Below, one piece after another: positions 1,676 through 63,492 of a DNA stretch of 64,000 nucleotides. Position 1 is the stretch's first letter, and each line of letters opens with the position of its first letter. The stretch is taken from NCBI GenBank assembly GCA_018304105.1, contig JAGVWX010000020.1, positions 97,494 through 161,493 of the forward strand, given 5' to 3'. The notes beneath the pieces were generated by a model. The model searched no databases. It saw only the letters and a program-made list of their open reading frames with translations, and was not told the origin of the DNA. A program made the translations under genes and the position numbers. The DNA is from Candidatus Pacearchaeota archaeon (GTDB taxonomy: Archaea > Nanobdellota > Nanobdellia > Pacearchaeales > GW2011-AR1).

Positions 1676-3865
1676 TTACTGATTCTCCGCCAGTCCCTTT
1701 CTATCTCTTATTTTCTTAATCACATCTGCTTGCAATTCTCTAGGCATTCTCTGGAATTCCTGGTCAGCCAAAGACGAAACTCCTCGCCCTTCCGTCGCAG
1801 ACCTTAAGTCATTGCTCCATCCAATCATTTCAGCGACAGGAATCTTTCCTGTAACAATCACAGTTCCTTCTTCCTGCTCGACATTTATCAAAGTTCCTCT
1901 CTTGCTTGAAACAAGCTGTGTAACTATTCCCATAAAGTCCAGCGGCGCTTCAATCCTATGCGTCTGCACTGGTTCAAACATCGAGGCGCCAGCAGTTTTC
2001 ATCGCTTCAACCATCCCCGCCCTGACTGCAGGATAAATCTGCGCCGGCCCTCGGTGCATGTGGTCAACGTGAATCTTACAGTCATGCAGAATGAATTTAG
2101 TTTTCATCAATGGTTCTTTCGACAATGGTCCGTTATCAACTATAAGTTTCCATCCATCCATTATCGAGTCAATTATTTCCCCAAGCAAGACAATTCCCCT
2201 CGTCCTGTCCTCAAAAATATTTCCTTTGTAAATTTCCCTCACTTGTCTCGCCTCATCGTTGCTCATTCCGCATTGTGACAATTTATCCCACACTTGCTCC
2301 GCTCTTTTCTTCAATCTTTCCTCAGGCAAATCTCCTTGCTCAATGGATTTATAGATTTCATCTTCAAGCGGCTCAATGCTGAAGTCAAAAATGTTATGCC
2401 CGTTCGGAGTTCTGATTTCAATAACCGCGCTCTTTTTCGCGACAGTCTCTCTGTAAACAACAATTGGCGGCCCGGTCTTAATTTCAAGCCCTTTCTCGCT
2501 CTTTATCCTTCCTTCAATAATCTCAAGATGCAGTTCTCCCATTCCTGAAATCAAGTTTTCTCCAGTCTCGTCGTTGATTTCAACTTTAATGCTCGGGTCT
2601 TCTTTAGCAACCTTCCTCAAAACTTCAATAAGCTTTGGCAGGTCCGCAGAATGTTTAACCTCAACTGATTTCGTAATTACTGGCTGGAAAATGTGCCTGA
2701 TTTCCTCGAAAGCACGCTGTTCATTTTCTGTTAAAGTCTCTCCAACATCAATATTCATTCCTGAAATAGCAAGAACATTTCCTGCAGGAACTCTTTCCAA
2801 CTGCTCTGGCTTAATCCCATTGTAAACAAATAACTGCTGAACCCTTCCCTTTTTCTTTATATTATTTGCGTAAAGTTCCATCCCATTAGTTATCGTCCCG
2901 GAGTAAAGTCTTCCAGCGCAAATTTCTTTCTTCGATTTTGAATCAATCACAATTCTTGTAACAATAAAAGCAACTTCTCCATTTGGGTTGCAATGCATAA
3001 GGTCTTGCCCAAACTTGCTGTCTATGTCTCCTCTCCAAATTTTCGGAATTCTGTATTTCTGCGCTTCAAGAGGATTTGGCAAATGCTTGACAGCCATGTC
3101 CAAAATAACCTCATTCAATGGTGCGTTCTCCCAAACCCATTTCTTTCTCTCTTCTTCTTCCATCTCGTAAATTCTGTAAACATCTTTGAAACTAACATTT
3201 TTCTTTTTCATAAAAGGTATTGAAAGCGCCCAGTTCTCTCTTGCAGAACCAAAAGCAACGCTCCCGTCTGCGACGTTAACCTGCCATTTCTCTTTGTATT
3301 CCGGCTCGGCAAGTTTCATTATGTGAATATTAAACTCGTTAATCAGCTTCACAAATCTTTCCTGCATTTGTTCCGGCGTTAGCTTCAATTCCTTAATCAA
3401 TCTGTCAACTTTATTGATAAACAAAACCGGCTTGACTCTTTCTCTCAGCGCTTGTTTCAAAACAGTTTCAGTTTGAGGCATAACTCCTTCAACCGCGCAA
3501 ACCAAAACGAAAGTCCCGTCAATCGCCCTCATGGCCCTAGTTACGTTTCCCCCAAAATCAACATGCCCTGGCGTATCAATCAAATTAATAAGGTATTCCT
3601 GTCCAAGATATTCGTGGGCCATCGAAACATTCGCAGCGTCAACTGTCATCAATCTTTCCTGCTCATCTTTGTGCTGCCAGGTTGCCATTCCTTCATCCAA
3701 GTCTCCCGCGTTCTTCTCAGCCATCAAGCCAGCTGCCGCAAGCAAATTATCAGTAAAAGCGGTTTTCCCATGGTGAATGTGCGCAGACGTTGCTACGTTT
3801 CTGATGTTCTCCTGCTTGGACGTTAATCTTTCAATTTTTTGAAGACTCGATTCTTTCTCAACCAT
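1676..3865 (-). CDS. fusA: translation elongation factor 2 (aEF-2)
   Basis: 729 aa with GTPase motifs AHIHHGKT and DTPGHVDF, full-length EF-2 architecture, downstream of S12/S7 as in archaeal str-like operons. Confidence 0.97.
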   Translation of the reverse strand: MVEKESSLQKIERLTSKQENIRNVATSAHIHHGKTAFTDNLLAAAGLMAEKNAGDLDEGMATWQHKDEQERLMTVDAANVSMAHEYLGQEYLINLIDTPGHVDFGGNVTRAMRAIDGTFVLVCAVEGVMPQTETVLKQALRERVKPVLFINKVDRLIKELKLTPEQMQERFVKLINEFNIHIMKLAEPEYKEKWQVNVADGSVAFGSARENWALSIPFMKKKNVSFKDVYRIYEMEEEERKKWVWENAPLNEVILDMAVKHLPNPLEAQKYRIPKIWRGDIDSKFGQDLMHCNPNGEVAFIVTRIVIDSKSKKEICAGRLYSGTITNGMELYANNIKKKGRVQQLFVYNGIKPEQLERVPAGNVLAISGMNIDVGETLTENEQRAFEEIRHIFQPVITKSVEVKHSADLPKLIEVLRKVAKEDPSIKVEINDETGENLISGMGELHLEIIEGRIKSEKGLEIKTGPPIVVYRETVAKKSAVIEIRTPNGHNIFDFSIEPLEDEIYKSIEQGDLPEERLKKRAEQVWDKLSQCGMSNDEARQVREIYKGNIFEDRTRGIVLLGEIIDSIMDGWKLIVDNGPLSKEPLMKTKFILHDCKIHVDHMHRGPAQIYPAVRAGMVEAMKTAGASMFEPVQTHRIEAPLDFMGIVTQLVSSKRGTLINVEQEEGTVIVTGKIPVAEMIGWSNDLRSATEGRGVSSLADQEFQRMPRELQADVIKKIRDRKGLAENQ

Positions 3866-3963: not shown

Positions 3964-5211
3964 ATGGGGTTTTTCGATTTTCTCAGAAAATCTAACGAAA
4001 AAGAAGTCCTAGTTGAAACTCTGAAACTTTCAGAAGTCGAATTTTTCCTGGACAAAAAATTAGAAGAGCTAAATCATAAACTAGGTCTAAGCATTCAGCA
4101 GACAAAAACAGAAATCTCAGAAGAAATAAGCAGGCTAAAAAACAATCTCGAAAATTTAGCAAATGCAGAGCTCAAAAATAAAGAGATTCCTGAAAGAGCA
4201 AAGCAAATCATGGAAGGGAACAGGCAAATATATATTCAGAAAACAAACACGCTTATTGAAAAAATAATATTTCCTGAAAAATCCAGAGACCTTCTCGAGT
4301 TCACAAAAACCTTTGACAAAGAGTTGGACGCTTTCGACAAGGGCATCTCAAAAAGCCATCACATCATGGAGGAATTCTTCGTTGAAAAAGCGAGCGTCAT
4401 TGCTGTCAGCATAAAAAAAATAGACAAACTTTTCAAAGAATTAAAGAGCGCTATAGAAAGCTCAGACATTTGGAAAATAGAAAAACTAAAGGAACAATCT
4501 TCTATCATAATAAAAGAAATAAGCAGAAAAGAAGAAAACAAAAATACCCTTAACATTTTAGACAAGGAAATCATAACTCTCGGGAAAGAAGTAAAAATTA
4601 AGGAAGACCAAATAGCCAAATTTAAACAAGAAGATTCTTACAGGAAGTATACCTCACAGTTAAATTCTAAAGAAAAAGCCCAGCAAGAACTAATCAATCT
4701 CGAGTCAGTTTTAAGGCACTCCTTTTCAGAGATAGAGCCAGCCTTGAAAAAATACGAAAATCTTTCTCAAAACAAACTTGCTAAAAAATATCTTGAAGAC
4801 CCTCTTGGCGCTTTGCTTGAAGACCAAGAGCTCGAAATCTCAACAATATTTGACGCAATAAAGAAAGCCATAATAAAAGGCGAAATTACACTTAAGGATA
4901 CAAAGAAAGACAGGGTAATGAATGAACTTTTTATTTTAAATAAGGAATTTTTCCAGAATTTCCTAAGCAAACGAACAGAACTCCGAGCCAATCTTTCAGA
5001 AACAACTAAGGAAATAGAAAATTCCTTAATAATAAAATCTCTAGACGAGCTAGAAAAATCACTCTTCCAAGACAAGGCATCTCTTCATGAAAAGAAGTCT
5101 GGCTTTGAAAAGTTGAATAAAGACATTGAAACATTAAATCTCTCAGACCTAGTATCCTCGCTTGAAAGTGAGTTTAAAGAAAAATTAAACCTGAATGTTA
5201 AGATAATTTAA
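3964..5211 (+). CDS. K/E-rich coiled-coil protein, unknown function
   Basis: 415-aa ORF with heptad-like low-complexity K/E/L/I composition. It lies on the opposite strand between S7 and EF-2. Confidence 0.55.
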   Translation: MGFFDFLRKSNEKEVLVETLKLSEVEFFLDKKLEELNHKLGLSIQQTKTEISEEISRLKNNLENLANAELKNKEIPERAKQIMEGNRQIYIQKTNTLIEKIIFPEKSRDLLEFTKTFDKELDAFDKGISKSHHIMEEFFVEKASVIAVSIKKIDKLFKELKSAIESSDIWKIEKLKEQSSIIIKEISRKEENKNTLNILDKEIITLGKEVKIKEDQIAKFKQEDSYRKYTSQLNSKEKAQQELINLESVLRHSFSEIEPALKKYENLSQNKLAKKYLEDPLGALLEDQELEISTIFDAIKKAIIKGEITLKDTKKDRVMNELFILNKEFFQNFLSKRTELRANLSETTKEIENSLIIKSLDELEKSLFQDKASLHEKKSGFEKLNKDIETLNLSDLVSSLESEFKEKLNLNVKII

Positions 5212-5819
5212 CGTGCTGAGTCCGCCTGTTTCTCAGCCTCATTCTTCTTTGACATTGCATAGCTTTCCATATTCTGGCTTGCTGCTTTCATTATTTCATC
5301 CGCTAATGAATCAACCATTTTCTTTTTCTTTCCAAAGCATCTGTTGTAAGCTCCCTGAACCATCCATCTTATCGCCAGGTCAACTCTCCTCATCGGCGAA
5401 GTGTCGACTGACTGCGGATATCTTGCGCCTCCGTGCTCAATGACAGTAATCTCGTCTCGTGGCGAGCCGTTCTCAATCGCCCTCACAAGAACCTGAATCG
5501 GATTTTCCCCGGTTTTTTTCTCAACTATCTTCATTATCTCAATCACCATGCTCATATTTTTGTTGTACTTTCCAGACGCCCAGCTTGTTATGATTCTGTG
5601 TTTCTTTCCAACATGCCCTGGAGTTGCAATCCTGTTGGCAAATCTTTCCATCAAGCCGACTCTCGCCTTTCCAAATCTGTTCAAGTTTCTGCCTTGCGAC
5701 TTCAGCAAAAGTCTCGGCTCAAGATTTATGTACGGCTTCAGCGCAGGATCTTTTATCTCGATGTTCGCAACATCAAACATGTCGAATAGTTTCATTTGCT
5801 GGGTTGTTTGTTCTACCAT
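5208..5819 (-). CDS. rps7: 30S ribosomal protein uS7
   Basis: 203 aa with typical archaeal S7 segments (GKKHRIITSWASGKY, ENGSPRDEITVIEHGGARY). Confidence 0.95.
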   Translation of the reverse strand: MVEQTTQQMKLFDMFDVANIEIKDPALKPYINLEPRLLLKSQGRNLNRFGKARVGLMERFANRIATPGHVGKKHRIITSWASGKYNKNMSMVIEIMKIVEKKTGENPIQVLVRAIENGSPRDEITVIEHGGARYPQSVDTSPMRRVDLAIRWMVQGAYNRCFGKKKKMVDSLADEIMKAASQNMESYAMSKKNEAEKQADSAR

Positions 5820-6124
5820 TATGCAACGACCTCCAATTCCTCATAACCTGCCGCTTTTCTCATAGCAATCGGTCCAAAATCTTCTTTTGAAACTAATTGT
5901 TTGTATCTTTGCATTGAAACTTTCGTCACAAAATCAGCAACATTCCTTCCATTTTCGGTTCTCTGATTATAAACCCCTATTACTCTTCCATAATCTACAA
6001 CATTGTCCTCGTGGGGAAACCAATCGCCATCATTTCCAATTCTAAGGACTCTCAGTTTATCTCCAACTCGCGGTATGCTGTCACCTTCAATATCAACAAA
6101 ACTCAAAAAAACACCGATGCTCAT
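5819..6124 (-). CDS. orphan 101-aa ORF inserted between uS12 and uS7
   Basis: Its start ATG overlaps the uS12 stop (ATGA at 6124-6121). Its stop overlaps the S7 start (TAATG at 5819). No family recognised. Confidence 0.5.
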   Translation of the reverse strand: MSIGVFLSFVDIEGDSIPRVGDKLRVLRIGNDGDWFPHEDNVVDYGRVIGVYNQRTENGRNVADFVTKVSMQRYKQLVSKEDFGPIAMRKAAGYEELEVVA

Positions 6125-6545
6125 CTTCTTCCCTTCTCAATCTTTCCTTTGACAAGTCTCTTCAAAGGCTGATCGTTTACTTTAATTACTCTTATCTCCC
6201 TTGGAACGTCCCTGCTTTCCGCCAATTCTTTCGATTATAACTTCATCGTGTTCATCCACAAACTTCTGCGCGAGATTTCCCGGAATGAACGCGCCAACTT
6301 GAATTCCATTTTTAACGAGCTGTACTTTGCAGCATTTCCTCATCGCGGAGTTTGGCTGCGCCGCCTCTTTCTGAAACTTTTCAATCACAATTCCCTTCGC
6401 CTGGCTAGAGCCTCCAAGCGGGTCCGATTTTATTTTGAGATTAAGCATTTTCGCATTATACATCTTATCGGCCCACCTAAACTGTTTTGGCCCACCTAAA
6501 CTGTTTTCTCTTCTTCGCTAATTTTCTAGCTCCCATCAATCCCAT
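6121..6545 (-). pseudogene. rps12: 30S ribosomal protein uS12 with two reading-frame disruptions
   Basis: Three collinear pieces. [18 protein letters not shown] runs from the ATG at 6545. [52 protein letters not shown]...[11 protein letters not shown] is track ORF 6182-6463. [24 protein letters not shown]-stop lies in the +1 frame and ends at 6121. Total length is 425 nt; removing the 19-nt duplication leaves 406 nt, which is 1 mod 3. Confidence 0.85.
6470..6507. repeat. perfect 19-bp tandem duplication (GGCCCACCTAAACTGTTTT x2) inside uS12
   Basis: Read directly. Copies are at 6470-6488 and 6489-6507. Removing one copy restores ...[24 protein letters not shown]. Confidence 0.95.
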
Positions 6546-6614: not shown

Positions 6615-6827
6615 ATGATGCCGCCATTTAAAATAAGAGAAGCAGAAATGAGGAGCAGAACAAAAAATCTTATTTCATTGATATCAGGAATAATTTTCAT
6701 ACTTGTTGGATTGAGCGGTACAATTATTAATTTACCGGCATCCAAACCAATTATCATAATACCTATTGTATCCCTTGTTATTGGAGCAATCCTTGCTATT
6801 CTTGGCGGATTAGAGAAATGGCAATAA
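6615..6827 (+). CDS. small membrane protein (70 aa)
   Basis: Two hydrophobic helices. Lies on the opposite strand between uS12 and nusA. Confidence 0.45.
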   Translation: MMPPFKIREAEMRSRTKNLISLISGIIFILVGLSGTIINLPASKPIIIIPIVSLVIGAILAILGGLEKWQ

Positions 6828-7108
6828 ATAAGGATTTAGCCTTATTAAATTTAAAATATCAAGATTATTTAACTTATATCGGAGTAATCTGGACTGTTGC
6901 TATTTCCTTTTTTGTCGCAATTGTTTCTTATCTTTTGGTATCCATACCTAATTTATCTTTCTTAAGGATTACAATCGGATTGTTAATTTTAGTTTTTATC
7001 GAGATAGCGTTCATAGCCATTTACTTTTTCTTAAATACTGAAAAGAACCGCATCAAAGAAAAGATTAGCCATCTCTCCTCGGGAGTATATTGTCCTTCTT
7101 ATCCCTAA
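6818..7108 (+). CDS. small membrane protein (96 aa)
   Basis: Two or three hydrophobic helices. Overlaps the previous ORF by 10 nt. Confidence 0.45.
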   Translation: MAINKDLALLNLKYQDYLTYIGVIWTVAISFFVAIVSYLLVSIPNLSFLRITIGLLILVFIEIAFIAIYFFLNTEKNRIKEKISHLSSGVYCPSYP

Positions 7109-7599: not shown

Positions 7600-10500
7600 T
7601 TATTTTTTCTTCTCGCTCTTCTGTTCTCTTGCCAAAGGCCCAGTGACCTTGACCAGCAATCCAGGCAATCCGGTTCCAACTGGAATCGGCTGGTTAAGCA
7701 AAATGTTTTCAATAACGGACTTAAGCTCGTCCTCTGCGCCCTTTATCGTCGCATTAACGAATTGCTTGTCCGGAGTTTCAAAAGTTGCCCTGGCAAGAAT
7801 GCTTGCCTTGTCAGTGATAATTCCCATTCTCGTTACTCCTTTAACCACTCCGGAAGAAGTCATTGCGTCAGCGACAAGCTGCAGATGCCTTTCATTAATG
7901 TCAAGCCCCTGAGTTTGGATAACATTTTTTATTTCATTGATTATGGTCAGCCTTGCCGCCTCAACTCCAAGCACATTTTTGACATCGTGAATATCGTTGG
8001 AAAATACTTTGTCTCTGTTAACTCCTTTTATTTCCAGGATTTCTTTCAAGTTAGAGCCGTTAGTCAAGATGACAAAGTCTCTGTCTCTTTTCGAAACTAT
8101 GACTTGCGGAACTCCTTTGACACCAGAAACTATCGTTTCTTTTAATTTTCCCTTCAGCTTGTACATTTCTTTGAAGCCAATTTCCGGAAGCGGAACAATT
8201 ATTTTATTTCCATTGATATTGACTTTAAACTTCTTGTCTATCAGCTTATCAGCAATTTTCTGGACGCCCGCATGCGTTCTTCTAACCGCTTCAGAATCTA
8301 ATTCTATCTCAATCTTTTTATTTCCAAAGTCAAGATTAATCTCAGACAAAACTTCTTCAAGCTTCACTTCTTTTATTTTTTCTGCCAAAATCCTTGCTTC
8401 CTTTTCATTGTTATGGTCTTTGTCAAGATAAATCTCCATCATCGGAGTTGAAGGTTGTTTTCTCGCGTCAAGAATTTCAATTAATCTCGGCAAACCCAGC
8501 GTAATCTGCATTTGCGCGACTCCAGCGTGGTGGAAAACGTTCAGGACCATCTGAGTTGAAGCCTCGCCAAAAGATTGTGCAGTTACAACGCCGACGGCCT
8601 CGCCAGGACAAATCTTGTCATCCTTCAGGTGAAGCTTGGCAACATCTTTTCCATCATATCCGTACACAAATTGAACAACATTTTCTGAAGCGTCTCTTAC
8701 AGTTCCATCGTATTCAACTTTCAAGTCCTGCAATGCGCTGACAAGTCGTCTGTACAAATAACCGGACTTAGGAGTTCTCAAAGCAGTATCCATCTGGCTG
8801 TCTCTTCCCGTTATCGCTCCAAAGAAAAATTCTGTTGGCTTGAGTCCTTTCAGGTAAGAAGATTTGATGAATCCTCTGGACTCTGAGCTAAGGTCACCTT
8901 TCTTGAAGAAAGATAATGTTCTGTCATTATATCCAAAACTAATTCTTCCATTCCATAAAACCTGCTGTCCGACGCAGCAGCCCATCTGTGTGATGTTCGT
9001 GATTCCGCCGCCGCTTCCGGATTTTATCATCATATTTATGTTTGCCTCCGGAGGCAGATTGACTTTAACAATATCTCCAACATCTGTTCTAACAGCGTTC
9101 AATATCTGCATAATCTTTGTTTCTCTTGTCTCTTCTGCGGTCTTCCCAGGCACAGCTTCCAAATTTCCAGAATTGTATTCTTCAATAACTTCCACCGTTC
9201 TTTTCTCTGCCTTCTCGATAATTTCTTTAGTAATCTCCTTAACTTTGTCCAGTACATCAATGTCGTGAAGTGAAAGAGTGTAGCCAACTCTGCTCAAATA
9301 CGAAGTTCCAAGCGTGAATGCCTTGTTGATTGTGTCTACCGCAACCTCTCTTCCCATCTCTCTATCAACTACTTTTACAAGCTCTCCATCTTCTGCACCA
9401 AACGTTTTGCTTCCGGTAATTATTGAAGGAACTGTAATTTTAGCTCCCTTCGGAATGACCTGCGCAAAAACTTCTGTTCCAGAAATTTCTTTCTTCTTAA
9501 TAGTATTCATCACGTTTGCAGAAAATAGCAGCTGATCTGCAAGACCCTTGTCCACAGTCGCTTTTCCAAGAAGATACGCGCCAGTAACAGCATCGGCAAT
9601 CGTTCCAACAAGGTTGGTATTATTTTTTGATGAGATTATATTCTTATTAATGTCCAACAAAATCTTTGCTTCAGAAAGCGCTTCTTCATTTTGCGGGCTG
9701 TGAATGTTCATTTCGTCTCCATCAAAGTCAGCGTTGTAAGGCGCAGCCGCGGCCGGATTTAGCCTGAAAGTCCTTCCAGGTAAAACTTTAACATAATGTG
9801 CCATCAAGCCCTGCTTGTGCAAGGTCGGGTGTCTGTTGAACAAGACAATATCGCCGTCTCTCAAATGTCTTTCAATTTTATATCCAGGCTGGATTTCGTT
9901 CATGATTTCTTCCTTCAGGTCTTCAGATAATCTCTTTCTTCTTCCGTCTGGTCTTATCACGTTATTCGCTCCAGGGTAATCAGTTCCCCTTTTAACAAGT
10001 TCCTTCATTTCTTCAAGATTTGTCGTCGTCACAGATTCCGCAACAGTGATGATTCTAGCAATCTGCTCAGGCACGCCAATTTCATTAATCTTCAAGTAAG
10101 GGTCTGGCGAAACAACCGACCTCGCAGAATAATTTACTCTCTTGCCAGCAAGATTATGCCTGATTCTTCCTTCTTTGCCTTTGATTCTTTCTGTTATTGT
10201 CTTCAATGGCTGTCCAGACCTGTGTCTCGCAGGGGGAATTCTTGTAACATTATTATCATAAAATGTGGTTATGTGATATTGCAGCAAGTCCCACAAATCT
10301 TCAATGATTACTTCTGGAGCTCCCGCGTTTAGGTTTTCCCACAATCTTTGATTAGCTCTGATTATGTCTGAAAGTTTGTGAGTCAAGTCGTCTTCGCTTC
10401 TTTCTCCGGTGTCAAGAGTAATCGACGGCCTGACAGTAACAGACGGCACAAGAAGCAAAGATATAACTGCTCTCTCCGGCCTCGCGGTCTTAGTGTTAAT

Positions 10501-11037
10501 CCCGATTTTCTTAAGTTCGTCATCAGAAATATTGACAAGTCTTTCTCTCACTTCAATCGGATTCAATCTTTTTTTGTCTATGAAAAAGTTTGTTGGTTTC
10601 TCAAGCTTTACTCTATCGATGTTCTCGTTGCAATGCGGGCATTTCTTCGCGTCTCTTGCTTTCTTCGCCCTTTCAGCAGGCGTCAGTCCTTTCTGCTTTT
10701 CATCTGACAGCGTCAACTTACCGCAATGAGGGCAGAAACTTCTCAAGCACAATTCCATCAAAGGAATATACTTGATATGCAAAACCGGTCTCGCAAGCTC
10801 GATGCTTCCGGGATGTCCGGGACATTCCTTAACTCTCTTCCCGCAAGTCCTGCATCTTACTCCCGGGTCAATCGCTCCAAGCCGCAAGTCCATAAGGCCT
10901 CCATCAACCGGGAAACCGTCAATGTCATAAAGTTCCGGAGTCACAACTTTCACCGCGCTAATTTTCTTAATCTGGTCCGGACTAAGCAAACTGAAACTCA
11001 GGCTTCTGACTTGTTTTCTCGAATATCTATTGCTCAT
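7600..11037 (-). CDS. rpoA: DNA-directed RNA polymerase subunit A, with A' and A'' encoded as one continuous ORF
   Basis: N-terminus has the zinc motifs RCRTCGKRVKECPGHPG, plus NADFDGDEMN. A''-type sequence (KICPGEAVGVVTAQSFGEASTQM...GLPRLIEILDARK...FETPDKQF) follows in frame with no stop or start around 8560-8700. The ATG at 11037 is preferred over the track TTG at 11043. Confidence 0.95.
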   Translation of the reverse strand: MSNRYSRKQVRSLSFSLLSPDQIKKISAVKVVTPELYDIDGFPVDGGLMDLRLGAIDPGVRCRTCGKRVKECPGHPGSIELARPVLHIKYIPLMELCLRSFCPHCGKLTLSDEKQKGLTPAERAKKARDAKKCPHCNENIDRVKLEKPTNFFIDKKRLNPIEVRERLVNISDDELKKIGINTKTARPERAVISLLLVPSVTVRPSITLDTGERSEDDLTHKLSDIIRANQRLWENLNAGAPEVIIEDLWDLLQYHITTFYDNNVTRIPPARHRSGQPLKTITERIKGKEGRIRHNLAGKRVNYSARSVVSPDPYLKINEIGVPEQIARIITVAESVTTTNLEEMKELVKRGTDYPGANNVIRPDGRRKRLSEDLKEEIMNEIQPGYKIERHLRDGDIVLFNRHPTLHKQGLMAHYVKVLPGRTFRLNPAAAAPYNADFDGDEMNIHSPQNEEALSEAKILLDINKNIISSKNNTNLVGTIADAVTGAYLLGKATVDKGLADQLLFSANVMNTIKKKEISGTEVFAQVIPKGAKITVPSIITGSKTFGAEDGELVKVVDREMGREVAVDTINKAFTLGTSYLSRVGYTLSLHDIDVLDKVKEITKEIIEKAEKRTVEVIEEYNSGNLEAVPGKTAEETRETKIMQILNAVRTDVGDIVKVNLPPEANINMMIKSGSGGGITNITQMGCCVGQQVLWNGRISFGYNDRTLSFFKKGDLSSESRGFIKSSYLKGLKPTEFFFGAITGRDSQMDTALRTPKSGYLYRRLVSALQDLKVEYDGTVRDASENVVQFVYGYDGKDVAKLHLKDDKICPGEAVGVVTAQSFGEASTQMVLNVFHHAGVAQMQITLGLPRLIEILDARKQPSTPMMEIYLDKDHNNEKEARILAEKIKEVKLEEVLSEINLDFGNKKIEIELDSEAVRRTHAGVQKIADKLIDKKFKVNINGNKIIVPLPEIGFKEMYKLKGKLKETIVSGVKGVPQVIVSKRDRDFVILTNGSNLKEILEIKGVNRDKVFSNDIHDVKNVLGVEAARLTIINEIKNVIQTQGLDINERHLQLVADAMTSSGVVKGVTRMGIITDKASILARATFETPDKQFVNATIKGAEDELKSVIENILLNQPIPVGTGLPGLLVKVTGPLAREQKSEKKK

Positions 11038-11314
11038 ATTCAAATCCTTCTGGGCTATCCAGAATATCGTCCCACTCTTCTACTATTGAACGAAATTCTC
11101 CAATTAATATTGGTTCATTTTTATAGAGAAGGCCAACTCTTCTAGCCAAGGCAAATTCGTCAGTATCACTATCAACAATTCCAACGCTGTTATTAATTGC
11201 TCTAACAGCAATATGTCTATCCCCGTAGCCTGCTTCTCTTAGCGCCTCTGCATTACCTAATACATATTTTCTTGCTCTTTCAAATTCCATCGCTTTTGTT
11301 CTATTGCTCATATT
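11026..11314 (-). repeat. 15-bp direct repeat pair (AATATGAGCAATAGA on the coding strand) at 11026-11040 and 11300-11314
   Basis: The same 15-mer forms both the rpoB-stop/ORF94-start junction and the ORF94-stop/rpoA-start junction. Period is 274 nt. Confidence 0.95.
11027..11311 (-). CDS. orphan 94-aa ORF inserted between rpoB and rpoA
   Basis: Start overlaps the rpoB stop and stop overlaps the rpoA start. Acidic C-terminus. No family recognised. Confidence 0.5.
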   Translation of the reverse strand: MSNRTKAMEFERARKYVLGNAEALREAGYGDRHIAVRAINNSVGIVDSDTDEFALARRVGLLYKNEPILIGEFRSIVEEWDDILDSPEGFEYEQ

Positions 11315-16427: not shown

Positions 16428-16467
16428 TTTTAATTATAATTTTGCTAAGGTTCATAAGCATGGCGCT

Positions 16468-16540
16468 TTAATATTTATTTAATATTTATTTAATATTTAT
16501 TTAATATTTATTTAATATTTATTTAATATTTATTTAATAG
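16468..16540. repeat. 11-bp AT-only tandem repeat (TTAATATTTAT, about 6.6 copies)
   Basis: Read directly in the convergent intergenic region. Confidence 0.95.
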
Positions 16541-19557: not shown

Positions 19558-20403
19558 TTACTCGCCACAGCCTGAGCGAGTCGTCTGCTTGCAGCTCGTG
19601 CACATTATCGCGCAGTTTCCTACTCTCTTTGCAACTCCTCCGCAAATCGGGCAGGTGATTCCTTCATCGGCAGAAAATTCCTCAAGCGAAGATTGCTGTT
19701 CGTTCATATCAATTTCATGCACATCAGATAAATCCACTTGAATTCCTCCAGCCCCCTCGCCAAAATTATTCATCATGAACTGGGCAACGTAATCCACAAT
19801 CGAAGAGGCGGTCCTGATTTGTTTGATATTCTGGTCAATTTCTCCTCCGGCAAGGTTCTTCACAAATCCCGCTGGCTCAAACTTCTGGTGCCTGAATCTT
19901 TTGAACAAGTCATTTACTGTTGCGCCGTATTGCAAATTTACTGAAACAGAAGTCGCCCACGCATCAAACAATCCCCTCGTTGTAGAGCCTTGTTTGTGCA
20001 TCGTCACAAAAATTTCTCCGGGCTTTCCATCATCATAAAGCCCAACTGTAAGATAACCTTCATGTCCCGCAATCTCAAACTTGTGCGTAATAGATTTTCG
20101 CGTCTGCGGCAGTTTCACCCTCTCGCCAATTTTCACAGTCTCTTTTTTCTTTACAACCTCTCCTTCAGTCTTCTGCGTATTTAACGGCTGCGACCTCTTG
20201 CTGTTCTCCCGGTAAATTGCAACGGCTTTCAGTTTCTGTTCCCATGCATAAATATAAGCTTGCATAATTTCATCGGCATTAGACTCTTCTGGCATGTTTA
20301 TTGTCTTCGAAATCGCCCCCGAGATAAACGGTTGAACCGCCCCCATCATTTTAATATGCCCTTTATATTGTATTGCCCTTTTTCCCTTAGCCGCCTTGAA
20401 CAA
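19558..20403 (-). CDS. nrdJ: class II (B12-dependent) ribonucleotide reductase, C-terminal fragment
   Basis: GHIKMMGAVQPFISGAISKTINMP and a C-terminal Cys cluster CPICGG...CTSCK. It continues the upstream ORF after a frame change near 20400. Confidence 0.85.
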   Translation of the reverse strand: MFKAAKGKRAIQYKGHIKMMGAVQPFISGAISKTINMPEESNADEIMQAYIYAWEQKLKAVAIYRENSKRSQPLNTQKTEGEVVKKKETVKIGERVKLPQTRKSITHKFEIAGHEGYLTVGLYDDGKPGEIFVTMHKQGSTTRGLFDAWATSVSVNLQYGATVNDLFKRFRHQKFEPAGFVKNLAGGEIDQNIKQIRTASSIVDYVAQFMMNNFGEGAGGIQVDLSDVHEIDMNEQQSSLEEFSADEGITCPICGGVAKRVGNCAIMCTSCKQTTRSGCGE

Positions 20404-22424
20404 ATGTGCGGAGCGCCTTCAATAGTTTCATTCTTATCTATGTGCGCAATAATCTCTTCAATCTGCCCATTGTCATATCCAAGCTTTCTCAACCCTCTTC
20501 TCACGCTGTTGTTTACAATTTTCAGCATCCCGCCTCCAGCCAGAACTTTGTATTTAACAAGCGCAATATCTGGCTCGATTCCAGTAGTGTCACAATCCAT
20601 CATGAACGCAATCGTTCCTGTCGGTGCAAGAACCGTCGCCTGCGCATTTCTATAACCATACTTCTGTCCAAACTCAACTGCATCAGCCCAGGAATCCCAT
20701 GCGTCATTGACAAGATATCTCAACGAAGAAGGCATCACCTCGACATTAATCCCCTTTACAGATTCTTGGTGCATCCTCATGACTTCCATCATTGGTTCTT
20801 TGTTCTTCGCAAATCCTGGAAATGGTCCGACCAAACCTGCAAGCTCCGCCGAGGTTTTGTAAGCTTCTCCAGTCATTACCGCAGTTATTGCGGCAGCAAC
20901 GGCTCTTCCAGCATCAGAATCGTAAGGCAATCCTAAACTCATTAACAGCGCACCCAAGTTTGCGTAGCCCAAACCCAACGGCCTGTAATCGTGAGCGTTC
21001 TGCGTGATTTTTGCCGTCGGATAACTTCCTCCATCGACAATCAAGTCCATCGCAATGACAAATGTTTTAACAACTCTTCTAAACTTTTCAATATCAAACT
21101 TTCCATCTTCACCCAAAAATTTCATTAGATTAATTGACGCTAAGTTGCACGCAGAATCATCAAGAAACATATACTCGCTGCACGGATTGCTTGCGTTAAT
21201 CCTTCCAGAGTTCTTGCAAGTATGCCACCTATTTATTACCGAGTCAAATTGCATTCCAGGATCTCCGCATATATGAGTTCCTTCCGCAATTTTTTTCAAT
21301 ATCTGTTTGGCCTTGAAAGTTTCGCAAGCCATTCCATCCTTTACAAATTTAGTTGACCATTGCCCATCGGCTTTTACAGCTTGCATAAATTCATCTTGCG
21401 CCCTCACAGACATATTGCAATTCTGGAATGCAACGCTGGCATAGGCTGCGCCATTCATCCCGCCATCGTATCCTGCTTCGATAAGTGCCCAGGCTTTTTT
21501 TTCTTCAGTTGGCTTGGCGTCAATAAAGTCCATTACATCCGGATGGTCAACATTTAAGATTTCCATCTTTGCAGCTCTCCGTGTCTTTCCCCCAGACTTT
21601 ATGACTCCAGCATAAGCATCATATCCTTTCATGAAACTAACCGGCCCGGAAGCTCTTCCTCCGCCTGTTAAAGTTTCTCTCGAGCTTCTTAATGGGGAGC
21701 GATTCGTTCCGGTTCCGCTCCCAGCTTTGAACAGATTCGCCTCAGCAACTTGCACTTCCATGATTGAATCCATATCATCCTTAATGCTCTGGATGAAACA
21801 CGCAGAACATTGCGGCCTGTCGCTTTGTTTTATTGATTTTACAACGTTGTTGCTTGCACTATCCCAAACATAAATCGAAACCCCTCCGGCATTCTTGTCA
21901 TATTCTTGAATCCCTGCATTGAACCACACCGGAGAATTAAACACGGCCATCTGATTCAAACAAATAGCCGCAATCTCATCCTTCAAAACAACCGCTTCTT
22001 CTTCGTTGAAATATTTCTGCTTTACCGCCTGCCTTCCAAAAAATCTCGAAACCCTTCCAATAAGCATTTCAACGGAATTTTCTCTTTCATTTTTTTTCTG
22101 GTCTCCCCAAAAATATTTGCTCGCAACAACTTTTATTGCAAGCGGCGACCAAAAGTCCGGCCTTCTAACTCCTTCCTGGGTGAAAACAACTTTCCCGGAA
22201 TCATCATTAACTGAAACAACGTCTGAAACCCATCTAATCGGATTCCCATAAATATCAAACTCAAAAGGATTCTTTCCTTCCTGCGTCAAAAATCTAACTA
22301 ATGGCATTTTATATTTTGCAAAAGAAGAATTCATTCTTTGGTCAGTTGATTTAGGCTCATGGTTAAATCCGTTCTCCTGGCCATTCCATCCATTTCCGTT
22401 TATCTCAAATCCGTTTTCTTTCAT
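20346..22424 (-). CDS. nrdJ: class II (B12-dependent) ribonucleotide reductase, N-terminal 692-aa fragment
   Basis: Typical NrdJ blocks (NSPVWFNAG, CSACFI, ASNPCSEY, VLAPTGTIAFMMDCDTTGIEP). Ends ...TIEGAPH and then goes out of frame. Confidence 0.9.
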   Translation of the reverse strand: MKENGFEINGNGWNGQENGFNHEPKSTDQRMNSSFAKYKMPLVRFLTQEGKNPFEFDIYGNPIRWVSDVVSVNDDSGKVVFTQEGVRRPDFWSPLAIKVVASKYFWGDQKKNERENSVEMLIGRVSRFFGRQAVKQKYFNEEEAVVLKDEIAAICLNQMAVFNSPVWFNAGIQEYDKNAGGVSIYVWDSASNNVVKSIKQSDRPQCSACFIQSIKDDMDSIMEVQVAEANLFKAGSGTGTNRSPLRSSRETLTGGGRASGPVSFMKGYDAYAGVIKSGGKTRRAAKMEILNVDHPDVMDFIDAKPTEEKKAWALIEAGYDGGMNGAAYASVAFQNCNMSVRAQDEFMQAVKADGQWSTKFVKDGMACETFKAKQILKKIAEGTHICGDPGMQFDSVINRWHTCKNSGRINASNPCSEYMFLDDSACNLASINLMKFLGEDGKFDIEKFRRVVKTFVIAMDLIVDGGSYPTAKITQNAHDYRPLGLGYANLGALLMSLGLPYDSDAGRAVAAAITAVMTGEAYKTSAELAGLVGPFPGFAKNKEPMMEVMRMHQESVKGINVEVMPSSLRYLVNDAWDSWADAVEFGQKYGYRNAQATVLAPTGTIAFMMDCDTTGIEPDIALVKYKVLAGGGMLKIVNNSVRRGLRKLGYDNGQIEEIIAHIDKNETIEGAPHICSRRLREKGQYNIKGILK

Positions 22425-29300: not shown

Positions 29301-29566
29301 ATGAGACTTACTCCGATTGGCGAACGCGTGGTCTTGAAGCAGACTGCGAAAGAAGAACGAACAAGGTCAGGAATTTACCTTCCGAAATCAGAAGATAAAA
29401 AAGAAGGAATTATAGTAGAAGTCGGAACATTAAAAGACGGCTCATTAATTCCGTTAAGAAAAGGCGACAAAGTTATTTACGGCGGCTACTCAAGCGAGGA
29501 ATACGAAGTCAACGGAGAAAAGCTTTTAATAGTTGACTTCAAAGATATTTTAGCAAAGATTGAAGG

Positions 29567-29570
<4 letters not shown>
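29301..29570 (+). CDS. groES: co-chaperonin GroES
   Basis: 89 aa with PIGERVVLK...SGIYLP...GDKVIYGGY. Confidence 0.95.
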
Positions 29571-31531
<1,961 letters not shown>

Positions 31532-50195: not shown

Positions 50196-50332
50196 ATTCA
50201 TATAATCCGTTAACGCAGAGGACAGGCTTTCTGAGATATGGAACAAAAGACAATATCGCACATTTCAACAACGAATTAATTTTTATTTATTCACTGAAAA
50301 TTTAAGCTATCTTATTTTTACTATCTTAATTC

Positions 50333-51196
50333 CTAGTTCTCCTTAACATTATCTCGTTCCATCAAAATGTCAAACGGATTCTTGACTTTCTTTAGCTGAT
50401 CGCTCGATACATGCGTGTAAACCTGCGTTGTGCTCAACGACGAATGTCCCAGCATTGCCTGAATAACCCTAATGTCAATTCCCTGCTCAAGCAGGTGCGT
50501 CGCAAAACTGTGCCTCAATGTGTGCGGAGTTGTCTTCTTGGTTATCCCAGACCTCCCGCTCGCACCCTTAATAATCTTCTGAATATTTCTCGTCGTTAAA
50601 GGTTTGTTTTTAGAAAATACAAATTCATTTTCTTTTCCTTTGCTTTCAAAATATTCTTTCAACTCTTTTGACAAACTTTCTGACATCATAAAAAGTCTGT
50701 CCTTGCTTCCTTTTCCTCGTCGAACCCATCCGGTCTTGTCCTCGAGATTCAAATCAGACATTTTTAGGTTCACAAGTTCAGAAACTCTCAGCCCGGTCGA
50801 ATAAAGCAGCGAAACAATCAGCCTCGACTTTACAGTATCCGTTGACTCAATTAAATCCCTTACCTCATTTTTAGTCAGAACCTCCGGAAGTTTCTTGTCT
50901 TTTTTTGGCAGCGGCACGCCCACAAAATCTTTTTTCAAAACTTCTTTATAGAAAAATTTCAGCGCAGCCGCAGCAAGCATAATCGTGTTCTTCGATTTCG
51001 AATCGAACATATCAGATAAGTACATTTTGACATCATCTTCGTTCAATTCTCCAGGAGATTTTTTAGACTGATTCAGAAATTTCTCTACGAAAAACGTATA
51101 GTTCCGAACAGTCAGCGGCGAAAACCCGCGAATTTTCAACTCAGCTTTTAGCTTGTTAACGACCCCCATTAACACCTCATTTGACTCCAGCCTCAT
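50333..51196 (-). CDS. xerA: tyrosine recombinase, XerA/XerCD-like
   Basis: 287 aa with an N-terminal SAM-like domain and a catalytic region ...GLRVSEL...HTLRHSFATHLLEQGIDIRVIQAMLGHSSLSTTQVYTHV. Confidence 0.9.
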   Translation of the reverse strand: MRLESNEVLMGVVNKLKAELKIRGFSPLTVRNYTFFVEKFLNQSKKSPGELNEDDVKMYLSDMFDSKSKNTIMLAAAALKFFYKEVLKKDFVGVPLPKKDKKLPEVLTKNEVRDLIESTDTVKSRLIVSLLYSTGLRVSELVNLKMSDLNLEDKTGWVRRGKGSKDRLFMMSESLSKELKEYFESKGKENEFVFSKNKPLTTRNIQKIIKGASGRSGITKKTTPHTLRHSFATHLLEQGIDIRVIQAMLGHSSLSTTQVYTHVSSDQLKKVKNPFDILMERDNVKEN

Positions 51197-51232
51197 TAAA
51201 ACGAACCTCTATTTAAAAGTTATTGCTCTGGC

Positions 51233-51430
51233 ATGTATACAAATCCTTATATATCTATTTCAATACAACCGATTATGGCAGACAGTGAAAAGCTAAGGCT
51301 GGCGGTCATTGCTGGCGCATCTCATGCGCTGAAATACCGAGAGGAAAATCCAAGAGCAGACGACAGAGAAGCCCTGAAGTTCGTCACGGAAAAAATAAAC
51401 GCAATTCTAAATGAAATCGAAGAAGATTAA
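51233..51430 (+). CDS. hypothetical small protein (65 aa, or 51 aa from the ATG at 51275)
   Basis: ORF only. Confidence 0.35.
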   Translation: MYTNPYISISIQPIMADSEKLRLAVIAGASHALKYREENPRADDREALKFVTEKINAILNEIEED

Positions 51431-51526
51431 CCATGTCCTAGCTCAATTCCCTCGCTCATTAATCTTTTTCCTAAAGCGTCGTATAGAAATCTTCTCGCAT
51501 CAAATTCATAATAATTAGGTTTGAAA

Positions 51527-51657
51527 TGCGGGGAGTAGGATTCGAACCTACGAAGGCACTAAGCACACAAGATTTCTCGCGAAATCCTATCTTAACTCTT
51601 CCTCGCGGAAAAGCGACGTCTTAAGTCTTGCCCGTTTGACCACTCCGGAATCCCCGC
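51527..51657 (-). tRNA. tRNA-Leu (anticodon UAA) with an intron of about 46 nt at the canonical 37/38 position
   Basis: Exon 1 (51657-51620) ends CAAGA-CTTAAG. Exon 2 (51573-51527) is A-TCTTG + 16-nt variable arm + GTAGG-TTCGAAT-CCTAC + TCCCCGC-A. The intron is roughly 51619-51574. Confidence 0.85.
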
Positions 51658-51707
51658 ATGATGAAGAGATTCTGGAGAATCGTTAGATTCATCCGGAATC
51701 CCCGCAT
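51644..51707 (-). repeat. 16-nt direct repeat of the tRNA-Leu(UAA) 5' end (ATGCGGGGATTCCGGA)
   Basis: TCCGGAATCCCCGCAT occurs at 51644-51659 and 51692-51707 (period 48). Confidence 0.9.
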
Positions 51708-51751
51708 TACATTCTCGAAAGAAGTTACTATTTTAAAGGTTACTAATCTCT

Positions 51752-51775
51752 TACATTGTAAAGTTAGCGGTTGGT
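51752..51775 (+). repeat. left terminal inverted repeat
   Basis: See the mobile element entry. Confidence 0.9.
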
Positions 51776-51847
51776 GAAGCAGATTACAAAAATATTTAAA
51801 CGCAGGTCTCATAGTTTTATCATGGTTACGGCACAGGGAGATTTCTG

Positions 51848-51960
51848 CTAACTTTAACATCCTAAATTAAGTTAGTTCTAATCTTTCTGTGCTGATTTCC
51901 AAACCACCAAAACCTTTAAATATATAATATATATCTATTTCTCAAGGATGTTAAAGTTAG
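51848..51960. repeat. internal 15-bp perfect inverted repeat (CTAACTTTAACATCC / GGATGTTAAAGTTAG) with an 83-bp spacer
   Basis: Read directly. The spacer contains TCTAATCTTTCTG, which resembles the target duplication, and an (AT)n run. Confidence 0.8.
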
Positions 51961-52055
51961 AATAGCAACTACAAATTTGTTGTTGCTTGTAGCTTGACAA
52001 TCTTATGTTTGCCAAAGAGGTGAACATTAAACTAAATTGCAGGAGGAAAAAATAA

Positions 52056-52997
52056 ATGCAAAAACAAATAGAAGTTAAGACAGAGCAAGGCATTAATTTA
52101 AGCCAAAGAATAATTATGCCGACACACAGAGAGCTGTTGAAATCCAAGCAGTATAATTTGCCGATAGTTTCTCTAAGTCCATTCGCTGTTTTCGTCAAGA
52201 AAATGGCTTCAACTCAAAGGCATAATTGGATTGGTAATATTAATGTTGATAAGCAGGCAATACAGGATATATGCAAGGATTTTGGTTCATACGATTTCTT
52301 AATAAATTTTCAATTTAAAAAACAAACCGACTTTAATCAAAATGAAACGGATTATTTTGAGCAAGTTCAACAAATTCCAGAGCTATCGTATATTTGCATG
52401 AATGAAAAAAGTGTAAATCAGACGACACAAGAATTTGAGCAACAGCTTAAAGGTTGGAAATTGCGAAATGCTGAAAAGTTCGTTGTTCCAGTAATAGAAT
52501 CTGCAACTAACGAAAAAGTGAAGAAAATCGCAATAATGAAAAGAGAAGATATAAAGCGATGTGCTGTTATTTTCCGAAGTTTTATAACTGAAGAAGATAG
52601 AGCAAATTTAAGCCGTATATTAGCCAACCTAAGAATAGCCAAAATCTACTCAATAGTTTTCGGAGTTAATCCGAAGAAATGGTCTAAAACTGCAGTTTCA
52701 ATGTATCTTCCGCCATTACAATTTGAAGCAAACGCCATATCATCTTGGATTGCGTGGGGCGGAGCCAAAGTTCCATTAGAGCTTTTGTGTTCCGACTGGA
52801 TTTATAGGTTGTCCAATTTTGCCGATAGTGGTCTTGCGAGTTACAATGGTTCTGGTAGAAAGAATTTTCTTACTGGAAATTCAAGCGTATCTTTTAATAC
52901 TGCATTAAGCCAAATTGACACCGTAAACCAAGCGAGCTTATTAGCACAGAGTTTTGTCTTAATACCCGAAGTTCAATTTAAACGCCTCTTCAATTAA
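52056..52997 (+). CDS. hypothetical protein (313 aa), transposon cargo
   Basis: ORF only. No family recognised. Confidence 0.5.
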   Translation: MQKQIEVKTEQGINLSQRIIMPTHRELLKSKQYNLPIVSLSPFAVFVKKMASTQRHNWIGNINVDKQAIQDICKDFGSYDFLINFQFKKQTDFNQNETDYFEQVQQIPELSYICMNEKSVNQTTQEFEQQLKGWKLRNAEKFVVPVIESATNEKVKKIAIMKREDIKRCAVIFRSFITEEDRANLSRILANLRIAKIYSIVFGVNPKKWSKTAVSMYLPPLQFEANAISSWIAWGGAKVPLELLCSDWIYRLSNFADSGLASYNGSGRKNFLTGNSSVSFNTALSQIDTVNQASLLAQSFVLIPEVQFKRLFN

Positions 52998-53189
52998 TGG
53001 GTTTTTGTCTGGGTAGTAATCCCAAAGCTGAATCCATAATTTATTGAGGTATTTTTTTACTTTAATTTTTTCTTTCTTTTTTATTTCATTATTTTTAAAC
53101 TTTCTTTCCAATTCTGCATCCGCTAAGTCTAAAGCAAAAACTCTTTTTTTCCATTCAAAATATCTATCATCGTCTTTTCTTATTTCCAT
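52959..53189 (-). CDS. hypothetical small protein (76 aa) downstream of the RHH gene
   Basis: The ATG at 53189 (MEIRKDDDRYFEW...) overlaps the RHH ORF 3' end by 23 nt. Confidence 0.4.
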   Translation of the reverse strand: MEIRKDDDRYFEWKKRVFALDLADAELERKFKNNEIKKKEKIKVKKYLNKLWIQLWDYYPDKNPLIEEAFKLNFGY

Positions 53190-53343
53190 TTTCAATTAAT
53201 TTAAGTTTATTAGAAAATAGCCAAGCATGGACTATTTCTTGTAATAACTTAGATTTATTCATAACATATTTCTCCAATGCTTTATTGAACAAGTCAAAAT
53301 CTTCTTGCTTTAATGTAAATTTTATTTGTCGGTCTGATGGCAT
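53167..53343 (-). CDS. ribbon-helix-helix (CopG-like) protein, 58 aa
   Basis: My own translation (below the track length cut-off): MPSDRQIKFTLKQEDFDLFNKALEKYVMNKSKLLQEIVHAWLFSNKL... This fits a beta-strand plus two-helix pattern. Confidence 0.5.
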   Translation of the reverse strand: MPSDRQIKFTLKQEDFDLFNKALEKYVMNKSKLLQEIVHAWLFSNKLKLIENGNKKRR

Positions 53344-53446
53344 TATTTAAAGTAGCTACATTAATATATAAAAGTATCTACCTTTAAAATTAAAAGTAAC
53401 TACGCAGTATAGAAAGATTTATATACTACATATATCTATTATATAC

Positions 53447-53614
53447 ATGGAGAATAAAGTTAGAGAAGCAAAAAAAATTAAAGATGAGTTAGACAAACTC
53501 GGTATTGAAGTTATTTTAGACATAGAAGTAACTGCTTTCGGAACATCAGCCCATATTCCAATATCAAAAAAATTTATCGGGAGGAAAGTGTCAATAATAG
53601 TGCCAAAAGAATAA
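53447..53614 (+). CDS. AbrB/SpoVT-like small protein resembling archaeal transposon-encoded DUF2080 proteins, 55 aa
   Basis: My own translation: MENKVREAKKIKDELDKLGIEVILDIEVTAFGTSAHIPISKKFIGRKVSIIVPKE. It sits directly upstream of the transposase and is followed by the GGGGAGC-CGAA-GCTCCCC hairpin (53630-53647). Confidence 0.5.
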   Translation: MENKVREAKKIKDELDKLGIEVILDIEVTAFGTSAHIPISKKFIGRKVSIIVPKE

Positions 53615-53671
53615 TCATATTAAATTAGAGGGGAGCCGAAGCTCCCCATATCCACCTAACGCTTAAATCAG

Positions 53672-54625
53672 ATGAGATACAAAAATCAGAACCAAGATAA
53701 GTATAAAAAAGTATTGTGCCCTAATTGTAATTCTAATGATGTAATAAAATGGTGCAAGAGAAAAACCAAGAATAGAGGAGAGATACAGAGATATAAATGT
53801 AAGTCCTGCAAGTCTTATTTTACTATTGATGATGGATTTTTCCGAATGAGAAATACACCTCAAAAGATAACTCAATCTGTAGATTTATTTTACAGAGGCG
53901 TTTCAACAAGAAAAGTACAAGAGCATTTAGCGATTTTTCATCCGCATAATGCCTCACACATGAGCGTCTATAATTGGATTGTAAAATACTCAAAGATGAT
54001 AAGTAAGTTTACAAATAAGTTAAAAGTTAGTGTTGGAGAAGAAGCACAAATAGATGAGATAGAATTTCATAGAAGGCAATACCATGAAAAAGGAATGAAA
54101 GGAACAGAAAAGAACTTTTTTATTGACAGCATAGACCCCGATACTAAATTCTTAATTTCTTCTGAATACTCCAAGACAAGAGGAAGCCAGAACATAAAAG
54201 CAGTAGTCAAAAGAATAAAAGAAAAAACAGACGACCAAATTAAAACAGCTACAACTGACGGATGGAATGCTTATGGAAAAGTAATAAAGAAAGTCTGGGG
54301 TTATAATAACAAATTAGGAAGATACAATGTTTTTCATAATAGAGTTATTGTTTCAGAGAAAGACGAGACTTTTAACTATCCTATTGAGAGATTGCATAAT
54401 TCAGTAAGAGCAAGAACAAAGGTAATGAGGGGCTTTCATGGTTCGATTAATTCTGCTAATGCCATTATGAAGGGCTACGAAATTTACTATAACTTCGTAA
54501 CTAAACATCAACAAATAAAATGCTGTCCTTACGAGCTGGCTATTCCAGAATTGGCAGAGATACTAAAGGAAAATAAAAATAAATGGGTGGCTTTGATAAA
54601 CATGGCAAACCAACAAAGCATATAA
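53672..54625 (+). CDS. DDE transposase with an N-terminal zinc ribbon (IS6/IS1-like; family not resolvable by eye)
   Basis: 317 aa with CPNCNS...YKCKSCKSYF and candidate DDE residues in AQIDEIEF, TTDGWNAYGK and PIERLHNSVRARTKVMRGF. Confidence 0.8.
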   Translation: MRYKNQNQDKYKKVLCPNCNSNDVIKWCKRKTKNRGEIQRYKCKSCKSYFTIDDGFFRMRNTPQKITQSVDLFYRGVSTRKVQEHLAIFHPHNASHMSVYNWIVKYSKMISKFTNKLKVSVGEEAQIDEIEFHRRQYHEKGMKGTEKNFFIDSIDPDTKFLISSEYSKTRGSQNIKAVVKRIKEKTDDQIKTATTDGWNAYGKVIKKVWGYNNKLGRYNVFHNRVIVSEKDETFNYPIERLHNSVRARTKVMRGFHGSINSANAIMKGYEIYYNFVTKHQQIKCCPYELAIPELAEILKENKNKWVALINMANQQSI

Positions 54626-54661
54626 AAATGGCAGTTATGTTTAATATTTTGGAGATTGAAA

Positions 54662-57252: not shown

Positions 57253-57288
57253 GAGAAATCAAAGAAAAAGCCCCTTTTATTGTTTTCT

Positions 57289-57312
57289 ACCAACCGCTAA
57301 CTTTACAATGTA
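57289..57312 (-). repeat. right terminal inverted repeat
   Basis: See the mobile element entry. Confidence 0.9.
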
Positions 57313-57372
57313 CTAATCTCTCTGAAAGTTAGGCGTATAAGATTTTATAAATATCGTTCTCCTTTCTAAAAG

Positions 57373-57702
57373 ATGTTTGACCCAAACAAAATAAAAAAGA
57401 AAATTCCAGTTAATGATTTTATAGCTCTAATAAGAAAATACCTGCCAGAAAACATAGAGGACAGCGGTCACACTTTCAAGAGGTTAAGTCAGAAGCAGAG
57501 AGAATTATTTACAATAGAAGAATTGAGCGATATCTTGCTTAAAGATAAGCCATTTCTCGTCGGGATTCAAGAAAACGACAACTATGCTGTTTTTTACAAA
57601 CATCAAGGCAAGAATCTGAGAGTTATAATCAAGCAAGAAATACAAAAGATTAAAATAGTAACATTTTATAACATATTGGAATGGCAGATACCAAAAATAT
57701 GA
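57373..57702 (+). CDS. small protein, possible DUF4258-like toxin
   Basis: 109 aa with SGHTFKRLSQKQRELFTIEELSDIL. Overlaps the next ORF by 22 nt. Weak call. Confidence 0.35.
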   Translation: MFDPNKIKKKIPVNDFIALIRKYLPENIEDSGHTFKRLSQKQRELFTIEELSDILLKDKPFLVGIQENDNYAVFYKHQGKNLRVIIKQEIQKIKIVTFYNILEWQIPKI

Positions 57703-63330: not shown

Positions 63331-63492
63331 GGCGAGCAGTCACGCGCCACCGAAGTTAAATCAAATAAGGCACGTGGCTGCGAGCAGAGCATGTTACGCA
63401 TCACCAATAATTAATCAATTAAGATGCGTGGCTGCGAGCAGAGCATGTTACGCGCCACCGAAGTTAAATCAAATAAGGCACGTGGCTGCGAG
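63331..63492 (+). repeat. 54-bp tandem repeat, about 2.7 units (26-nt GTGGCTGCGAGCAGAGCATGTTACGC plus 28-nt linker)
   Basis: Units start at 63374, 63428 and 63482. The linkers at 63346-63373 and 63454-63481 are identical, and the middle linker is about 60% identical to them. Confidence 0.9.

Follow-up and report, generated by a model that had tools for sequence, protein, structure and literature searches.

The gene rps12 is broken into three frames as it is written in the window, i.e., in the whole stretch of 64,000 nucleotides that was analyzed here. Judging from the comparison with public sequences, these breaks are most likely an artefact specific to this record, namely local assembly errors, and not the sign of pseudogenization, gene splitting or recoding. 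Three lesions were found in the window, and all of them are private to this one record and lie in a background without any substitution relative to the sister contigs of the same population. The feature is almost certainly simply rps12, with breaks that are a property of the record rather than of the organism. As written, the gene and its lesions comprise the following features:

6121..6545 (-), rps12 gene (archaeal/eukaryotic-type uS12), as written broken into three frames
6477..6545 (-), N-terminal fragment of uS12 with 22 aa, from ORF translation
6470..6507 (unstranded), perfect 19-bp tandem duplication with the minus-strand unit AAAACAGTTTAGGTGGGCC, from TRF and sister alignments
6182..6463 (-), middle fragment of uS12 with 93 aa (MYNAK...GRSKGDKSN∗), including the QPNSA motif of the decoding loop, which is conserved
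6192..6193 (-), junction of a 17-bp deletion, the minus-strand sequence TTAGAGGAATCAGGTTT being missing, from sister alignments
6121..6195 (-), the C-terminal 24 codons of uS12 in a third frame, from ORF translation and tblastn

The gene starts with the ATG at position 6545 of the minus strand, and its last stop codon, which ends at position 6121, shares bases with the start codon of the following ORF (ATGA). The original prediction described 18 residues read from this ATG and then a stop. The frame and the stop were found, but the 18 residues are followed by AKTV, which gives an ORF of 22 aa. The middle frame, said to stop at position 6182, was recovered as the ORF 6182-6463, whose start is an internal methionine codon of the normal rps12, and the C-terminus lies in another frame ending at position 6121, as had been proposed. 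The pieces of uS12 as written have a length of 22, 93 and 34 aa, the last one with TTG as its sole possible start. The 93-aa fragment reaches 100.4 bits with PF00164 and 125.7 bits with TIGR00982 (profile positions 22-110 of 139), the latter score being below the cut-off of 140.2. The largest uS12 ORF of the window is therefore below the equivalog cut-off, and a full-length product is impossible as written.

The first frameshift results from the extra copy of the 19-bp unit, which is present only once in the sister contig. TRF reported 2.0 copies of GGCCCACCTAAACTGTTTT at 6470-6507, with matches of 100%, in agreement with the duplication described before, and the junction between the copies is 6488|6489. 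It is the sole perfect tandem duplication of at least 19 bp that TRF found in the window, with about 2e-7 of them expected by chance in 64 kb. The claim that the removal of one copy restores the canonical N-terminal frame also holds true, and the repaired stretch equals the sister contig base for base. The shortening noted for the GD-IPGVR segment comes from 17 bp that are missing at 6193/6192 relative to the sister contig, the motif of this lineage being GDIRGIRF. The deletion shifts the frame and takes out most of the conserved GD-IRGIRF motif, which is present in the sister contigs, whereas the QPNSA motif is retained in the 93-aa fragment of the window. The two lesions are 296 bp apart, and their net effect relative to the intact gene is +2 bp.

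Sister contigs were located via the exact protein products of two neighboring genes, the intact rps7 and a 101-aa ORF between rps12 and rps7, both of which lie outside the lesions:

5208..5819 (-), rps7 (uS7), intact, identical in the sister contigs, used as search anchor in the protein look-up
5819..6124 (-), ORF101, orphan gene of 101 aa between rps12 and rps7

The sister loci originate from at least five independent assemblies, and the overlapping loci jointly cover positions 1-64000 of the window. These assemblies are ENA ERZ28564264, JGI 3300002105 with two contigs, ENA ERZ4903072 with a k141 contig, JGI 3300025121, and ENA ERZ27254729 with a k141 contig. In ENA ERZ28564264, scaffold_97 of ANAN16-1_SAMN03202994 (117.8 kb) encodes an uninterrupted S12 of 140 aa. 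The intact rps12 of the sister contigs has a length of 423 nt, and the locus of the window is nucleotide-identical to it except for the 19 additional and the 17 missing bases. A megablast comparison of all 64,000 bases gave 100.000% identity, with 0 mismatches and no 1-bp indels. Exactly three differences remained, i.e., +19 and -17 in rps12 and -31 at 20401/20402.

The identical intact 140-aa uS12 was found on 46 public contigs, and the 90% identity cluster of the intact protein comprises 58 contigs with full-length forms. Contigs carrying the intact protein include per-run Logan assemblies. In contrast to these intact forms, neither the 93-aa and 34-aa products nor the products expected from the duplication only (119 aa) or the deletion only (114 aa) were found among approximately 15 billion proteins. 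When genome_contigs and metagenome_contigs were scanned for exact DNA patterns of the locus, both in the form with the duplication and in the form without it, no match was obtained. The comparison with sister assemblies, which had been proposed as a check, thus yielded an intact uS12 in independent assemblies that are otherwise identical to the window. It had also been stated that the feature would simply be rps12 if reads supported an uninterrupted ORF, and an uninterrupted ORF was found at the level of independent assemblies.

One other truncated member of the uS12 90% cluster, P0007, was identified. It derives from another Rifle aquifer scaffold of this population, scaffold_6113 of ANAN16-1_SAMN03203000 (ENA ERZ28564383; L092, positions 4983-5331), in which rps12 carries a different, clean deletion of 74 bp with a 3-bp GAA microhomology, leading to gene calls of 87 aa and 43 aa. 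This scaffold shows neither of the two rps12 lesions of the window and differs from the other contigs by 2-3 SNPs. It shows that such lesions arise in rps12 in assemblies of this kind.

The identity of the gene is clear in its intact form. The repaired 140-aa protein, which equals that of the sister contigs, reaches 191.2 bits with TIGR00982 (uS12_E_A; cut-off 140.2) over positions 1-139 of 139, and 196 bits with NF003254 (cut-off 196). According to the sister gene tables and Pfam, rps12 is located in the canonical order nusA-rps12-rps7-fusA. The position within the archaeal cluster rpoH-rpoB-rpoA-nusA-rps12-rps7-fusA was found as expected, and the window is collinear with the sister loci. In each of the 80 related species that were compared, S12 is encoded once and without interruption, with a length of 138-141 aa, and the motif GD-I[RP]G[IV]RF is conserved at the C-terminal position across these 80 proteins. 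The closest species representatives are MAGs assigned to Pacearchaeota, Woesearchaeota or 'Nanoarchaeota'. The best S12 identity among GTDB representatives is 93% at the amino acid level, therefore the species of the window is not among the GTDB representatives. A second rps12 was not found by tblastn within the 64-kb window.

The small gene ORF101 overlaps both of its neighbors, with ATGA at rps12 and TAATG at rps7. It has no match in Pfam or NCBIfam, and among 1.84 billion representatives just two proteins, 101-105 aa long and 45% identical, turned out to be real homologues. Of 78 related species, 40 have an ORF on the same strand, with a length of 58-147 aa, in the slot between rps12 and rps7, and these ORFs show no detectable mutual similarity. 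In 36 of the 78 species, rps12 and rps7 abut. In view of the related loci (L008-L087; L094, positions 3423-3728), the position of ORF101 looks like a hypervariable slot for small proteins within the str operon.

Furthermore, two small hydrophobic ORFs of 70 and 96 aa without a Pfam match are located at 6615-7108 (+). They lie on the opposite strand, break the usual adjacency of nusA and rps12 and are identical in the sister contigs. The RNA polymerase subunit A at 7600-11043 (-) is encoded by a single ORF of approximately 1145 aa containing the Rpb1 domains 1-5. Most archaea have separate genes for the A′ and A″ parts of this subunit, and single-ORF forms of 1130-1162 aa are present in the related loci as well. 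A 94-aa ORF at 11027-11311 (-) overlaps the rpoB/rpoA junction.

The third lesion of the window is located in a gene for a class II (B12-dependent) ribonucleotide reductase (RNR):

20401..20402 (-), junction of a 31-bp deletion in the class II ribonucleotide reductase gene, the minus-strand sequence CTGAAGAGCACCTGCCAGTTTTTGACTGCGC being missing

The RNR gene (19558-22424) is split into the ORFs 20346-22424 (692 aa) and 19558-20403 (281 aa), both of which match Pfam. In the sister contigs the protein has 965 aa, and three independent sister assemblies lack the deletion, which removes the conserved segment ...SEEHLPVFDCA... of the protein. The broken 692-aa product was not found in the searched collection of approximately 15 billion proteins. 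The original prediction had argued from the intact long genes in the neighborhood (rpoA, rpoB, EF-2) that random sequencing error is an unlikely explanation. These genes are indeed intact, but the argument is weakened by the RNR gene, which is split by a further multi-base lesion in the same window.

Taken together, the three lesions are long and frame-disrupting, and the genes that they hit are highly conserved, with one being essential in all organisms. Dozens of other assemblies of this clonal population carry the normal genes. Three long indels of this kind without any point change do not resemble the natural mutation spectrum. Local assembly errors would account for them if short pieces had been wrongly joined in assembly, scaffolding or gap closure, both at the RNR gene and at the two sites in rps12. 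One join would have left a 19-bp overlap unmerged, while 17 and 31 bases, respectively, would have been lost at two others. The organism itself, a DPANN archaeon of the Pacearchaeota type from the groundwater of the Rifle aquifer, would then have a single, uninterrupted rps12 of 140 codons. We infer a production step behind the lesions, be it assembly, scaffolding, gap closure or a subsequent change to the record. If three lesions are placed at random, two of them lie within 315 bp of each other with a probability of 0.029, and because of this closeness, one local event with two bad junctions is suggested. The two rps12 lesions are probably both ends of one misplaced short piece.

Several more specific causes were considered and rejected. 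No microhomology is present in the sequence context of the +19, -17 and -31 junctions, which does not fit replication slippage or a shortcut in the graph from one direct repeat to another. A TAGAG repeat near the 17-bp deletion would delete 15 bp instead of 17. A tangle of the assembly graph with a related strain is likewise unsupported, as the rps12 DNA of the relatives is 83-85% identical and was sampled elsewhere. None of these relatives shares with the window a long exact block that ends at a lesion boundary. The length of 19 bp would fit a k-1 overlap at k=20, the default of IDBA-UD, and was dropped as an explanation since the Rifle assemblies used a mink of 40. The missing 17 and 31 nt could not be explained as excised archaeal bulge-helix-bulge introns or as structured recoding signals either, as they are unstructured and their removal destroys conserved motifs.

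The window could alternatively show real DNA variants, i.e., defective alleles that belong to a subpopulation, to part of the chromosome copies in a polyploid cell or to relic DNA, which were followed by the assembler in one sample. The clean junctions without Ns and without any shortcut mediated by repeats are what would be seen if the reads truly contained the junctions. The sequence context of the deletion junctions has no repeats able to create a shortcut in a de Bruijn graph, and a scaffold-free k-mer assembler would therefore need reads that contain these junctions. The different frame-breaking deletion in scaffold_6113 could likewise be read as recurrent real damage to rps12. However, given about 50-70 assemblies of the locus and one error per 50-90 kb (PMC7111523), about one further error is predicted in a gene of 423 bp. 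Moreover, the broken or hybrid products occur on no other contig, compared with 46-58 contigs having intact forms, and three long indels stand against zero substitutions over 64 kb. A cell that has lost uS12 and the sole RNR found in this analysis would not be expected to survive, and one type of defective molecule would have to gather three independent hits and yet dominate the sample. Real variants are thus rather unlikely. It is more doubtful still that the lesions are real on one class of DNA molecules, such as defective copies in a polyploid, host-dependent DPANN cell or the relic DNA of a dying clone. If this were true, the record would capture essential genes being lost through long indels on a background free of point mutations.

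A true pseudogene with a functional second copy elsewhere in the genome is very improbable. The only point in its favor is that the gene is unreadable as written. Against it, the broken copy occupies the canonical position nusA-rps12-rps7-fusA, the 64-kb window holds no second copy by tblastn, and relatives match as a single, uninterrupted copy at the rps12 locus. The gene shows no sign of relaxed selection because it is nucleotide-identical to the functional sister allele except for the two indels, with no substitution in 64 kb.

The expression of rps12 despite the breaks, by two programmed frameshifts or as a protein split into three pieces, can be practically dismissed: an SD-like AGGTGG does lie upstream of the internal ATG of the 93-aa piece, but it is the same in the intact gene, the frameshift sites are absent from all relatives and all sister contigs, the gene is uninterrupted in 80 of 80 relatives and in the 58 contigs of the 90% cluster, no stable RNA structure was found at any lesion (folding z-scores of +0.3 to +1.8), any product would be without the conserved GDIRGIRF motif, and the last of the three pieces (22, 93 and 34 aa) has a TTG start only. 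Real split or recoded genes are kept as such among relatives and have their own signals for each piece. Of the four options that the original prediction had listed, local misassembly is the one supported here, a population variant keeps a small chance, and a pseudogene as well as split or recoded expression are unsupported by the sister contigs and the 80 relatives.

Outside of the lesions, further observations were made in the window. At 29301-31531 (+), genes for a GroES-like Cpn10 (89 aa), a 114-aa ORF and a member of the Cpn60/TCP1 family (537 aa) follow in series, an arrangement pointing to a GroES/GroEL pair of the bacterial type in a DPANN archaeon. A low-GC island (29-32% compared with approximately 40% elsewhere) extends from about 50300 to 58000 and adjoins a gene for a phage-type integrase (50333-51196). 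The genes on the island include one for a DDE transposase (53672-54625) and one for an N6/N4 DNA methyltransferase (54656-55990), and the island is likely an integrated mobile element. A 131-nt tRNA match from Rfam at 51527-51657 was missed by ARAGORN, and this tRNA gene probably contains an intron. In addition, TRF identified a perfect tandem array of the 11-mer TTTAATATTTA with 6.6 copies at 16467-16539 and an intergenic 54-bp unit repeated three times (79% matches) at 63334-63492, both of which are also present in the sister contigs.

The main value of these results lies in quality control. If the record is taken at face value, the universal marker uS12 is missing and the RNR is split, which would lower completeness estimates and drop a marker from phylogenomic alignments. 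Such a reading also invites false claims of pseudogenization, of split genes or of recoding in a DPANN archaeon. Where reads are lacking, look-ups of public assemblies via identical neighbors can substitute for read mapping. In the unlikely case that the lesions are real, the loss of essential genes would be documented in a natural archaeal population.

Compared with archaeal uS12 as described by TIGR00982 and PF00164, the repaired gene of the window matches end to end and lies in the canonical str operon context, while the gene as written differs in that its largest ORF falls under the equivalog cut-off. The locus resembles the split genes of Nanoarchaeota and other DPANN archaea as well as programmed frameshifting, since a conserved gene of a DPANN genome is found in several frames or pieces. 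In contrast to these systems, rps12 is plain and uninterrupted in all relatives and in all other assemblies of the same strain.

A closer parallel is given by published scaffolding errors. Local assembly errors are prominent in IDBA-UD, and duplicated sequence at scaffold joins was described, with 13 errors in a genome of 1.13 Mb (Chen, 2020, Genome Res, PMC7111523). Such local scaffolding errors were also described for the Rifle aquifer dataset (Anantharaman, 2016, Nat Commun, PMC5079060). Like these errors, the lesions of the window are short, clean, located in otherwise perfect sequence and, judging from the contigs compared, private to one assembly (PMC7111523; PMC5079060). Published duplicate overlaps usually have Ns between the copies, unlike the copies in the window, where no Ns are present. 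One lesion of the window would be a duplicated overlap at a join, as in the published cases, and the others would be bases missing at joins. The error density is of the same order, with 13 errors per 1.13 Mb in the published genome and 2-3 events per 64 kb in the window, and the organism of the window belongs to a population from the Rifle aquifer dataset, for which errors of this type have been published.
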